This document shows, one piece after another, positions 32,983 to 36,527 of a stretch of DNA of 64,000 nt. Positions within the stretch are counted from its first letter, which is position 1; every line of letters begins with the position of its first letter. The stretch spans positions 113,975-177,974 of the IMG/VR virus record IMGVR_UViG_3300031669_000002. One strand, written 5' to 3'. Position numbers and translations under genes: made by a program. Below the pieces are notes generated by a model, which ran no database searches, was not told the DNA's origin, and was given only the letters and a program-made list of their open reading frames with translations. Origin of the DNA: a virus.

Positions 32983-33275
32983 TGGACGCCCGACAAAAAG
33001 GTCTTGAGTTACTTGAGGACTGGTCTCAATATAAATCTGTGCAGTATAGCGAGAAAACATTATTTGATCGCGCAGTAAATATTGAAATTGAAAAGGATGC
33101 AGTAACACGGCTTGCTGGACTCGTTCAGCAAGCATTGATGGATGACAACTTTCCTACAGTTGAGTTAGATTATCGCAATAGAATGATGGAAACGCACCTA
33201 CGCACTTTCAAAGATCAGATCACATTCGAGTTGCTCAGAAACGGATTCAAGGATCAACCCTCTCAAGCACTGTAG
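32982..33275 (+). CDS. Hypothetical protein
   Basis: TAATG coupling, 97 aa. Confidence 0.7.
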   Translation: MDARQKGLELLEDWSQYKSVQYSEKTLFDRAVNIEIEKDAVTRLAGLVQQALMDDNFPTVELDYRNRMMETHLRTFKDQITFELLRNGFKDQPSQAL

Positions 33276-33284
33276 AGAAAGTCC

Positions 33285-33313
33285 TTGACATAGCACCTTA
33301 ATGATGCTATTAT
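33285..33313 (+). promoter_or_regulatory. Sigma70-type promoter for first tRNA
   Basis: TTGACA-N17-TATTAT. Confidence 0.75.
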
Positions 33314-33327
33314 GTTGTTTAAGTTAA

Positions 33328-33446
33328 GCCTCGGTGGTGAAATTGGTAAACATAAGGGACTTCTTCGAGGGCTTGCGTAAAGCGAGTTCTCCTGAAAATC
33401 CCTCGGCCGCAAGGCCTTCCCGGTTCGAGTCCGGGTCGGGGCACCA
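33328..33446 (+). tRNA. tRNA-Leu(UAA) with 32-nt insertion in the anticodon loop
   Basis: Leu-type D loop, long variable arm, A73 and CCA. The AGGGA/TCCCT stem encloses CTT[33363-33394]AAAA. Confidence 0.8.
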
Positions 33447-33486
33447 AATAAGTAGTTGATTGTTAAGACGAAAAGAAAGTTGAAAA

Positions 33487-33638
33487 AGTTCTTGACAAAG
33501 TATCAAAAGACTGTATAATATAACACTTAATGCAGTAAAGATAAGTTACGTGAGGTTGGCGGTGCATAACGTAACTTCGTTAGACAAAACCGCCACTATG
33601 AAATAGTTCTTGACAAAGTATCAAAAGACTGTATAATA
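33487..33638 (+). repeat. 34-bp direct repeat, each copy a sigma70 promoter
   Basis: AGTTCTTGACAAAGTATCAAAAGACTGTATAATA at 33487-33520 and 33605-33638 (TTGACA-N16-TATAAT). Confidence 0.85.
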
Positions 33639-33795
33639 GAGTTATAGTAATAAATAGTTAAGTGTTATTTGTTTGAACCGCTCCACTGGTAATCAGCTCG
33701 GGGTCAGTATTGCAGATAATGCTTAACTATTTAGATGCTAAGAAGCACTTTTTTTCGTTTCGGTATAAATAGTTATAAGAAAAAGAAAATAGTGC

Positions 33796-33824
33796 TTGAC
33801 ACGAAGCATAAATAAATATATAAT
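33796..33824 (+). promoter_or_regulatory. Sigma70 promoter with embedded late promoter
   Basis: TTGACA-N17-TATAAT with CATAAATA in the spacer. Confidence 0.8.
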
Positions 33825-33873
33825 GTAACACAAATGCAGCACTAATCTAAAGAAAGATAAACGAAAGCAGAAA

Positions 33874-34029
33874 ATGAACTCACTACTAAGAAACTTACAA
33901 CCAACACATATTTGCCCGATAGCCGGGTTTAGTATACCTGTGTGGTCGCAAATTTCAGCAGTAGAGTCAGATTCACGCAATACACAGAATTATGAAGGCA
34001 AAGCAGCAAGGAGTCGTCCAGGGATTTAA
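33874..34029 (+). CDS. Putative attenuator leader peptide (51 aa, all 20 amino acids)
   Basis: MNSLLRNLQPTHICPIAGFSIPVWSQISAVESDSRNTQNYEGKAARSRPGI. The 3' end overlaps an antiterminator strand. Weak RBS. Confidence 0.55.
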   Translation: MNSLLRNLQPTHICPIAGFSIPVWSQISAVESDSRNTQNYEGKAARSRPGI

Positions 34030-34054
34030 CGCAAAGAAAATGCGAAGAATTTAG

Positions 34055-34090
34055 AACCCTGGATCGAAAGAGACTGGGGTTTTTTGTTTT
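34055..34090 (+). terminator. Intrinsic terminator / attenuator
   Basis: AACCCTGG...CTGGGGTT stem with inner TC-GAAA-GA and a long T tract. Confidence 0.8.
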
Positions 34091-34125
34091 GTAGCCAAGC
34101 AGTTGTTAAAAAGTTTAAAAAGTGC

Positions 34126-34154
34126 TTGACAATAGAATAAAAAGATAGTATAAT
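34126..34154 (+). promoter_or_regulatory. Sigma70 promoter
   Basis: TTGACA-N17-TATAAT. Confidence 0.8.
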
Positions 34155-34718
34155 AGTTTATCGCAGTATTGAGAACTTAGCAGCAGACGCCGAAAGGCAA
34201 CGGAGCGTAAGAGGACTAAGGAAGATATTGCAAAGTAGCAAACTGTTACAGAACACCGTGCAGTATAAAAAATGGCACAGACCATCGTGTTAGCAAACTG
34301 AGAAAACGAAAAATATCCCACTCAGTATAATAAAGAATAACGGAAACCGAGGAATGAAATTGGCCTGTGATGAACAGGGTGCCCTTAAAAAGGCTTAGTA
34401 AAAATCGGTTATAATTAAAGTGCCTTTACGGAGACATTTTAATTATACACATTCAATTGGAAGGATACACTAGTTGACGACAGCGATTGAGTGTGTTACA
34501 AATTTTGAAACTATGAGATAGCGTCGCTAAACGATGTCGAGTAGGTTGCTAGTGTAGTGGTTGCACACTGCTGGCGAGTAAGGTAAGATGAGGTGTTAGC
34601 GCACTGATGAGATCCTGAAAAACTGGCGGAGGCGAAGGTTCGAATCTCTTTACATTCGTTCAATTAAATTAGTTCGACTCCTATGTACTTGTGATAAATA
34701 AGTACATAGGAGAAATAA

Positions 34719-35333
34719 ATGTTTTATTTTTTGTATCAAACAACTAATCTTTTAAACGGTAAGATCTATGTAGGTGTTCATAAGACCAATAATTTAGATG
34801 ATGATTACTTAGGAACCGGCACTCTTATTAAGCAGGCTATTAAAAAATACGGTAAACAGAATTTCAAGAGAGTTATTTTAGAAATGTTTGATACTGCCGA
34901 TAGTATGTACTTGCGAGAATCACAGGTCGTGACAAAAGCTTTTACTGATAGAGAAGATGTGTATAATATCCGTGTTGGAGGTAAGGCAGGAGTTGAGGAA
35001 TTTCACGATAGGTTAAGATCAGATTCAACATTTAAGAAAGAATATTCTGCTAAACTAAGTGCAGCAGCACACAGAAGAATATTACGCGGTGACAGCAGTT
35101 TACACAGGTATACAAAAGAAGATGGACTTAACGGTTCTGCCGCTGCTCTATCAGAAGATGCTAGAAAAAAGCGCAAGAATACATTTAACGAAATAGGTCA
35201 TCAACAAGGTGAAAAGAATGCCCAGTATGGCACGAGATGGATTACAAATGAATTACAAAGTATTAAAATAAAAAAAGATGCTCTAATTCCAAAAGGATGG
35301 AGAGCAGGTCGTGTTAATGGAAATAAGAAGTAG
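34719..35333 (+). mobile_element. GIY-YIG (Seg-like) homing endonuclease
   Basis: FLYQTTNLLNGKIYVGVHKT, YLGTG, YNIRVGG, C-terminal QYGTRWITN module. Confidence 0.85.
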
Positions 35334-35751
35334 ATTCAAAGACACTGCACCGTCATTAAATGACAGCGCCTGGGCCGCGAAAGTGTCCACCAATTTTCTT
35401 TACTACAATGTTCTGAGCCGACACTTTGAATGAAGGCCACTTCAGTAGTAATCGTGATATGAGTCAATAGAGTTACACAAGAGTAATCCAGGGTAATTAC
35501 TATATTTCCAATCACAGAATTCTGTTATCCATGAGTTGTACTAGTGAAGTTTCTTCCACGGATAATGTAATACTTGAAGGCTGGCAAGTTATGTCCAGCA
35601 GACAGTGGAGACTGGAACCGAGATAAACGGAACGTGTATGAGCTATTTTGACCGACGTTTATAGCATAGAACTCCGATTAACAGTGCGGTAGGGTAATAA
35701 ATTTTGCATCCCGACTGTCAGTGATTGACAGAGACAAAGCAAATACGATAG

Positions 35752-35936
35752 AAGCACATTCAATTAACTGTGCGGTAATGGATGTTGGGATAAGTGAGTA
35801 GGCCACTCATGTAATACAATTGAAGTTATCCAATACGGTGACAGTTCGACAGGCGAATAGCCCCTACGAGGGGAAGAAGTAGGTTAATACAAAAGGGCAA
35901 CTCCTACTCACTTTGTTCAGTTAATTGAATGTGCTT
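35752..35936 (+). ncRNA. Unknown structured RNA A
   Basis: Perfect 19-bp terminal inverted repeat 35752-35770/35918-35936. No ORF. Confidence 0.55.
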
Positions 35937-35937
35937 A

Positions 35938-36125
35938 GAAATACATTTACTGGGACGCTCAGTTGGTGAACGATTCCAACTAGACGAGAACGGACCGCAG
36001 CGTGTTATCCTCGGTCAAATGCGGAAAATAGGGTGGTTCCTAGAGTACTGCAATATCTCGTGACAGCATAGCGATTGACCATCGTTTACTAGTGCGAACC
36101 TAGTGCATCCCAGTAAATGTATTTC
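35938..36125 (+). ncRNA. Unknown structured RNA B
   Basis: Perfect 18-bp terminal inverted repeat 35938-35955/36108-36125. No ORF. Confidence 0.55.
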
Positions 36126-36437
36126 AATAATTAGATTTGGGTTACTTGCTCCATTAGGCATTGCTAGGCGCTAAAGTTTAGCAATGTATGAAACCAGGTC
36201 CGAGTTACAAGATACGGGTAGACACCATAGTCCCCAGATGTAGTAACAACAAAAGATGAGGCGATGGATTTAAACAGCAAGAAGTAATGAGAAAGGCTGT
36301 GAAGATATGGTGTTGACACAATCGGTTCTTCCTAAAGTTTCCTGCAGAAAGAAAACACTGCGACCTTAGCTTGAGCGGGCGGTATGTCAGTTACGAAACA
36401 GTAGGGTAGAAGCCCTTACGCTTAGGCACAAATTTAT

Positions 36438-36527
36438 GGAGAACGGGCTGGACGGCAAGGCAGAAGTTTGCTAAACTTTAGGACACATAATATGGTCCAC
36501 AGGGTTCGACTCCCTGGTTCTCCGCCA
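36438..36527 (+). tRNA. tRNA-Ser(GCU)
   Basis: Loop TT-GCT-AA, long V arm, G73, CCA. Confidence 0.85.

Follow-up and report, generated by a model that had tools for sequence, protein, structure and literature searches.

Why would a jumbo phage from soil place, in front of its island of transfer RNA (tRNA) genes, a 51-codon frame that encodes each of the 20 amino acids and runs into an intrinsic terminator? The locus lies at positions 33874-34090 of a 64,000-nucleotide (nt) stretch of viral DNA (hereafter, the window), which is the last 64 kb of the 178-kb IMG/VR virus record IMGVR_UViG_3300031669_000002; this length, at a CheckV completeness of 51%, identifies the record as a jumbo phage, and its genome has a G+C content of 39%. 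The original prediction was a pan-amino-acid attenuator, in which the progress of a ribosome along the short open reading frame (ORF) settles whether transcription continues into the island. From the comparative sequence analysis described here, we put the chances that the unit is a ribosome-coupled transcription attenuator at about even. The ORF, the terminator, the pairing between them, and the full amino-acid set recur in relatives, whereas the appeal to rare codons and to an RNase P RNA did not hold, and the full set proved not to be absolute.

Two competing hairpins at the end of a short frame

The unit and the promoter behind it comprise the following features of the window, with the RNA structures predicted by RNAfold.

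33796-33824, + strand: leader promoter of sigma-70 type, TTGACA-17-TATAAT, a 12/12 match to the consensus, with a predicted transcript start near 33831
33831-33873, + strand: 5′ untranslated leader of about 43 nt, A-rich, in which the block AGAAAGATAAACGAAAGCA is nearly invariant in an alignment of subgroup A
33874-34029, + strand: leader ORF of 51 codons plus TAA, from the ORF call, with homologues recovered by profile searches
34013-34023, + strand: predicted 5′ strand of the antiterminator, GTCGTCCAGGG, codons Ser47-Gly50, ending 3 nt ahead of the stop codon
34030-34044, + strand: inner hairpin CGCA...TGCG, directly past the stop codon and enclosed by the antiterminator
34053-34090, + strand: intrinsic terminator, stem 34053-34065 with 34072-34083, core CCCUGG:CUGGGG
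34126-34154, + strand: second consensus promoter of sigma-70 type, 12/12 match, the last such + strand promoter before 47085

Thirteen distinct units were found in four diverged subgroups of related jumbo-phage contigs, and all of them have an ORF of 48-78 codons, a stop-codon hairpin, and a terminator. The loci are distributed as follows.

Subgroup A: the window, L040, L051, L052, L041, L043
Subgroup B: L002, L047, L057
Subgroup C: L004, L045, L048
Subgroup D: L005

The case for attenuation starts from GUCCAGGG (34016-34023) at the end of the frame, which pairs with the 5′ arm of the terminator, so that positions 34057-34066 are common to terminator and antiterminator. TCCAGGG at 34017-34023 and CCCTGGA at 34057-34063, the two complementary segments originally pointed out, are both in place, and the terminator is strong, as had been stated, with -13.2 kcal/mol by RNAfold at 34053-34083 and a U tract (34080-34085) followed by GUUUUG (U6-G-U4). 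The competing hairpin at 34016-34064 reaches -18.2 kcal/mol with a z score of -3.5 and is also present in the minimum free energy fold of the whole transcript; against dinucleotide shuffles, the duplex of the window has p = 0.018-0.029. When RNA is folded as it would be before the 3′ arm of the terminator exists, the minimum free energy structure pairs the end of the ORF with the terminator 5′ arm in the units folded, L005 included. This duplex reached p<0.05 in 11 of the 12 units tested, compared with 3.9% of 76 control terminators (control median p 0.49), which were other terminator-like hairpins of the same phages with the arm defined as for the leaders; in a smaller control set of nine terminators, the outcome was sensitive to how the arm was defined.

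The pairing follows the local arm sequence in each of three registers, namely, UCCAGGG:CCCUGGA in the window, L041, and L043, CAGGGUCC:GGACCCUG in L040, L051, and L052, whose C-terminus differs, and GGGGUU(C/U):(G/A)AACCC in subgroups B-D. The terminator stem shows compensatory changes among relatives, and a natural variant, T34075C, converts a G-U pair to G-C; all units have terminator hairpins of -13 to -19 kcal/mol plus a U tract, which is interrupted in subgroup C, L043, L047, and L057. Furthermore, a hairpin across or next to the stop codon is present in every relative, although the hairpin sequences are unrelated, and this element may be a pause or nucleation hairpin.

The proposed mechanism runs as follows. 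The strong promoter would give a short mRNA with the 51-codon frame, which ribosomes would translate. While the polymerase moves on, the last codons (34013-34023) would pair with the terminator 5′ arm (34057-66) to form the antiterminator around the stop-codon hairpin. A ribosome that keeps pace and stands on the last codons or the stop codon would mask the 5′ strand, the terminator (34053-34090) would form, and the transcript would end; in subgroup A, this strand lies only 3-6 nt from the stop codon, a distance that a terminating ribosome would easily cover. If the ribosome is delayed earlier in the frame, or is absent, the antiterminator would win and transcription would continue. The output in the window would be extra transcription of the island on top of that from the promoter at 34126, and in relatives it would be expression of arfA (ribosome rescue), of a conserved 55-residue protein, and of the RNAs and tRNAs that follow.

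All 20 amino acids in diverged leader frames

Relatives were traced from homologues of a neighbouring 541-residue protein, and then by synteny, architecture, and profile searches; identity of neighbouring proteins to those of the window is 52%-94% where measured. At L002, where this protein is 71% identical, the layout is a promoter, a 52-codon ORF, and a terminator, and L004 and L005 are alike. Conservation of ORF and pairing, which had been named as a check, is borne out in that both recur in the 13 units of four subgroups with differing pairing registers. A profile search of 1.84 billion representative proteins gave seven clusters, to which a search of 90% clusters added variants, and an architecture-only scan of all loci (promoter, ORF of 38-85 codons, terminator) returned family members alone. 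Nucleotide and protein searches of public phage records found no relative, nor did a single-protein scan of viral contigs, in which an alignment-based scan did succeed. Searching the window peptide against the related loci by blastn and tblastn gave only noise beyond L002 and L004, and the subgroup-A DNA pattern gave 13 chance matches and no new member across viral contigs. Membership of L005 is based on synteny, the architecture-only scan, shared motifs, and a four-sequence profile; a three-sequence profile that excludes L005 fails to recover it. ORFs with all 20 amino acids in L010, L022, and L013 were dropped as spurious, being without promoter or terminator. A decayed second leader copy is seen at L004:5288-5427, with the first 25 codons identical, the -10 element deleted, a different C-terminus, and no terminator.

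As originally read, the 51 codons of the window leader comprise all 20 amino acids and 35 distinct codons, including CTA, TTA, ATA, AGA, and AGG. Eight amino acids (C, D, F, H, K, M, W, and Y) are single-copy and the 20th is reached at residue 43. By chance, all 20 occur in about 2% both of 51-residue windows of the phage's proteins and of random ORFs that begin with ATG and have 45-55 codons, and in 5-7% of random codon strings of matched composition. In windows of the proteins of the phage group (Met given), the corresponding frequency is 0.5% at 38 residues, about 1% at 41-43, 2% at 47, and 14-15% at 76-78. The full set is present in 12 of the 13 units. Subgroups A, B, and D, with 48-57 residues, have it without exception and complete it by residue 38-47; in subgroup C it is complete by residue 52-59, and in each case this point is reached ahead of the pairing strand. 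Synteny or architecture, not amino-acid content, led to subgroups B and D, and the joint chance that they all have the full set is roughly 1e-4. Two qualifications apply to these counts: at 76-78 residues, at least 19 amino acids are present in 40% of protein windows, which makes such content not unusual, and 35 distinct codons are likewise not unusual. The emphasis on rare codons has to be abandoned, as AGA and TTA, with a relative synonymous codon usage of 2.27 and 1.96, respectively, are common in this phage and the ORF does not differ from the null in mean codon preference.

What a ribosome on the leader may report

The amino-acid content invites a wider reading, namely, a universal decoding sensor, in which loss of any tRNA by starvation, host shut-off, or an anticodon nuclease would stall the ribosome, flip the antiterminator, turn on ArfA, and boost the island of tRNAs and transfer-messenger RNA (tmRNA), as a counter-measure to tRNA-targeting defence. 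We hold this reading tentatively, as a possibility. At least one codon for each amino acid stands before the pairing strand, and therefore slow decoding of any class would raise read-through; with single copies, the leader could in principle respond to a severe loss of any tRNA class and would respond less to mild starvation. We infer three of these steps: the ribosome governs termination, one codon is enough for a stall, and the switch is linked to defence.

Alternatively, the switch would report only whether a ribosome follows the polymerase, and hence translation capacity or host shut-off, the 20 amino acids being those of a drifting peptide. We regard this as unlikely. Drift leads one to expect the full set in about 2% of peptides of 45-55 codons, whereas all of subgroups A, B, and D have it before the pairing strand, and the single Cys codon, at residue 14 in the window and residue 8 in close relatives, has been relocated and not lost, as has the single His codon. 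On the other side, folds of the full transcripts revealed no competitor for the 5′ strand, that is, no 1:2-type structure or anti-antiterminator, and therefore untranslated transcripts are predicted to read through, which makes read-through the default without ribosomes. Most amino acids are single-copy, without the runs of regulatory codons that make classical leaders far more responsive, and codon choice is not biased towards slow codons. Three subgroup-C variants, P0132, P0131, and P0133, have lost His, Cys, and Val, respectively, and kept the unit; the idea that the absent residue mirrors an absent tRNA was rejected for the His-less variant, since the phage concerned (L055) carries tRNA-His. 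The switch could thus report the presence of a ribosome and not codon-specific stalls. Several of these findings, and of those in the next paragraph, weigh against the attenuator.

The leader ORF has no canonical Shine-Dalgarno sequence, the core of which precedes about 60% of the phage's long ORFs, in line with the earlier caveat of a weak ribosome-binding site; units of subgroups C and D are leaderless or nearly so, their frames starting at or a few bases from the predicted transcript start. In subgroups B-D, 17-21 nt separate the 5′ strand from the stop codon, a distance at which the footprint of a terminating ribosome would reach its limit and coverage is borderline; stalls at the last few 'sensing' codons would mask the strand. 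A ribosome located between the two strands might, in these subgroups, instead remove the inner helices and let the local terminator win. The terminators of subgroup C have a broken U tract, GGGUUUCGUAUUUU. In the window and throughout subgroup A, the promoter at 34126 means that read-through is not needed for the island and can only add to its transcription. In favour of the attenuator, the leader stretch is present in two soil metatranscriptomes, in one as a 654-nt contig (33699-34351) that crosses the terminator and the next promoter and in the other run as contigs covering 33815-34051 and 34171-34352; as assembled contigs are uninformative about ends, strand, and levels, they establish no more than the occurrence of the unit in RNA libraries and the existence of some molecules that cross the terminator. 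RNA contig cover is absent at 33000-33648 and 34377-34457.

A further alternative, which appears decidedly unlikely, is an ordinary gene for a small protein, complete with promoter and terminator, in which the pairing is a 3′-end stability element or incidental. The separate promoter-to-terminator layout, with another promoter next in the window, would suit such a gene, as would the conserved motifs P-x-W, N/G-Y-E/R, and GFREG/SRPG. For other leader pairs, the ratio of nonsynonymous to synonymous substitution rates (dN/dS) is 0.27-0.81, with the lowest value in subgroup C, and some peptide-level constraint therefore remains, which also tells against the attenuator. The comparison of the window with L052 argues otherwise. 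The leader has a nonsynonymous divergence (pN) of 0.24, a synonymous divergence (pS) of 0.33, and a dN/dS of 0.66, compared with 0.038, 0.605, and 0.03 for the 541-residue protein and a dN/dS of 0.04 for a neighbouring 97-residue protein. Its amino acids thus change about six times faster than those of its neighbours, and its synonymous sites are more conserved than theirs (pS 0.6-0.7). AlphaFold2 predicts no fold for the peptide (predicted local distance difference test score 57, predicted template modelling score 0.13), and the leader peptides have no Pfam or PHROG match. Moreover, the pairing is specific to leader terminators, and six units have no downstream sigma-70-type promoter.

Between subgroups, peptide identity is only 16-30%, although the frame is open and its ATG conserved in 13 of 13 units. 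In the alignment of subgroup A, neither the frame nor the conserved C-terminal motifs are shifted, and net differences in ORF length are therefore multiples of three. This pattern of substitution fits a frame that must be read, on an RNA with constraints of its own, and the leader frame is probably translated. A non-coding regulatory RNA (a riboswitch- or T-box-like leader or a small RNA) with the open frame as a by-product is highly improbable, because the weak or absent Shine-Dalgarno sequence, the low pS, and a whole transcript that folds somewhat better than shuffles (z score -2.2) are set against the persistence of the frame, its start codon, and its phase across all four subgroups, the lack of any Rfam hit to the unit and its flanks (33200-36500) at the gathering score or E<=5, T-box included, and RNAalifold results with almost no covariation within, and no covarying structure in, the ORF body.

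The tRNA island, the downstream genes, and known leaders

The ribosome-coupled attenuator, if that is what the unit is, stands within a dense array of transcription signals. Five consensus or near-consensus promoters are found within 33285-34154, and the first four serve, in order, an intron-bearing tRNA-Leu, two short RNAs without an ORF, and the leader unit. The ORF-less unit that follows the promoter at 33610 is predicted to fold, at 33644-33760, into a long hairpin of about 22 bp that is almost perfectly paired (-36.4 kcal/mol, z score -4.5). The leader promoter recurs at the matching place in all relatives with upstream DNA; both it and the terminator are of the Escherichia coli type. The second promoter begins 36 nt past the terminator and, with its full consensus match, substantiates the earlier caveat that another promoter lies downstream. 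Two further features of the window belong here.

33764-33771, + strand: putative T4-type late-promoter-like motif TATAAATA, read from the sequence, with similar motifs upstream of units in relatives
34161-34351, + strand: ORF-less short RNA of about 190 nt, behind the second promoter and the first stretch that read-through would reach

ATAAATA also occurs inside the spacer of the leader promoter (33808-33814), as it does in 11 of the 12 evaluable units. The presence of a T4-type late-like motif within a sigma-70 spacer suggests that the leader unit is transcribed both early and late. (T)ATAAATA was recorded in this spacer in L002, L004, L041, L043, L045, L047, L048, L051, L052, and L057; one or two extra copies lie just upstream of the leader promoter, and the motif is absent from the promoters after the terminator.

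The island contains about 40 tRNAs and a permuted tmRNA according to Rfam, or 44 tRNAs according to ARAGORN; the RNase P RNA once assigned to it was detected by neither program. The promoter scan of the window revealed no further consensus sigma-70-type promoter on the + strand between 34154 and 47085, and no good + strand terminator follows the leader unit until 52563, just beyond the last tRNA. Read-through of the leader would therefore join a transcript covering the first 13 kb of the tRNA island.

Contigs of two studies bound the 190-nt RNA, ending at 34351 and 34352, with one starting at 34171, and Rfam gives no match for it. Relatives L051 and L052 conserve the 3′ half of this RNA, and strain variants swap 34156-34231 for a different 28-nt hairpin. 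In co-occurring strains, seen in DNA contigs, 34009-34075 is exchanged as one block, from the last codons of the ORF through the stop-codon hairpin to the 5′ arm of the terminator, which agrees with an L040-type variant; these strains also carry an 11-nt insertion after 34111 that matches L040/L051-type relatives. Further downstream, RNA contigs of two studies join 34657 straight to 35334, skipping 676 nt with a GIY-YIG endonuclease ORF (34719-35333); the joint was not found in the two DNA runs, and one RNA run has both forms. The skip would be explained by removal of the cassette from the RNA or by a strain that lacks the cassette; the 61 nt before the GIY-YIG ORF offer too little room for a group I core.

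The genes adjoining the unit in relatives are as follows.

L002:15671-15790, L047:487-615, L057:4126-4254: ArfA homologue of 39-42 residues, adjoining the leader unit in an island of tRNAs and tmRNA-like RNAs
L004:8224-8391, L048:5322-5486, L047 about 640-810: conserved Lys/Glu-rich ORF of 54-55 residues
L002:15840-16100, L004:8400-8620, L047:820-1060: structured RNA of about 230 nt with a long closing stem and blocks such as CAGGAAACGAGG

A promoter after the terminator is present in all six subgroup-A units and L002 and is missing in L047, L057, L004, L045, L048, and L005, where the next gene accordingly has no sigma-70-type promoter. In L047 and L057, arfA begins 27 nt past the terminator stem (Pfam ArfA, PF03889, 26.5 bits, cut-off 25.5). 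No sigma-70-type promoter was found in L057 between the leader promoter and 600 nt beyond, and in L047 a promoter before arfA is excluded because the 27-nt gap leaves no room for it. In L002, arfA (29.6 bits) follows with a promoter. The 178-kb record of the window itself has no ArfA match. The 54-55-residue ORF stands directly after the leader in subgroup C and after arfA in L047 and L057; it is under purifying selection (dN/dS 0.13), and neither Pfam nor PHROGs gives a match for it. The leader terminator of L005 is directly followed by an HNH gene. Behind the small downstream genes of relatives come the conserved structured RNA, which has no Rfam match, and then tRNAs; in L047, a tRNA-like or tmRNA-like element (a weak RF00023 hit) is located at 1082-1157, after the structured RNA.

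Leader attenuators of enterobacteria include trpL, hisL, pheL, and leuL, the multivalent thrL and ilvL, and pheM before pheST. In these classical systems, a short translated frame is followed by an intrinsic terminator whose 5′ arm can pair instead with the last part of the frame, unless a ribosome that has reached this part masks it. The present unit has the same three elements as the trp, his, and thr leaders (frame, terminator, and an alternative pairing that a ribosome would mask) and, like pheM-pheST, a target in the translation machinery. By contrast, it has no cognate codon runs, offering about one or more codons for each of the 20 amino acids, and no 1:2 anti-antiterminator; its frame has 48-78 codons compared with 14-32 and is phage-borne; and it precedes tRNA, arfA, and tmRNA-island genes and not biosynthetic genes, the target in the window having its own promoter. 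Leaders that sense inhibitors (ermCL-type, ARE-ABCF leaders such as vmlR, and toiL-topAI) use, as the present unit would, a small frame to turn a disturbance of elongation into downstream expression, but they use arrest peptides or Rho and answer drugs, whereas no arrest motif is evident here and the peptide is poorly conserved. T-box riboswitches offer a like choice between antiterminator and terminator, by which they report tRNA charging and control translation-related genes, but they bind tRNA directly and are untranslated, whereas the present unit has a conserved frame and no Rfam T-box match. E. coli arfA, which yields a non-stop mRNA under tmRNA control, ties, much as the proposed switch would, ArfA to the state of translation with a hairpin near the 3′ end of a short frame; there, the hairpin is within arfA and acts through mRNA cleavage and tagging, whereas in L047 and L057 a separate upstream frame and a terminator stand before arfA. 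The unit shares the logic of the trp, his, and thr leaders but is not a member of any named leader family.

Attenuation by leader peptides is known as a sensor of one or a few amino acids before biosynthetic operons, and a full-text literature search found no description of an all-20 leader of this kind. If the attenuator reading is true, a leader with all 20 amino acids, placed before tRNA genes and a rescue factor, would serve as a sensor of decoding failure in general, and the tRNA arsenals of phages would be regulated and not simply expressed. Such regulation would bear on how phages cope with tRNA-cleaving defence and with host shut-off.

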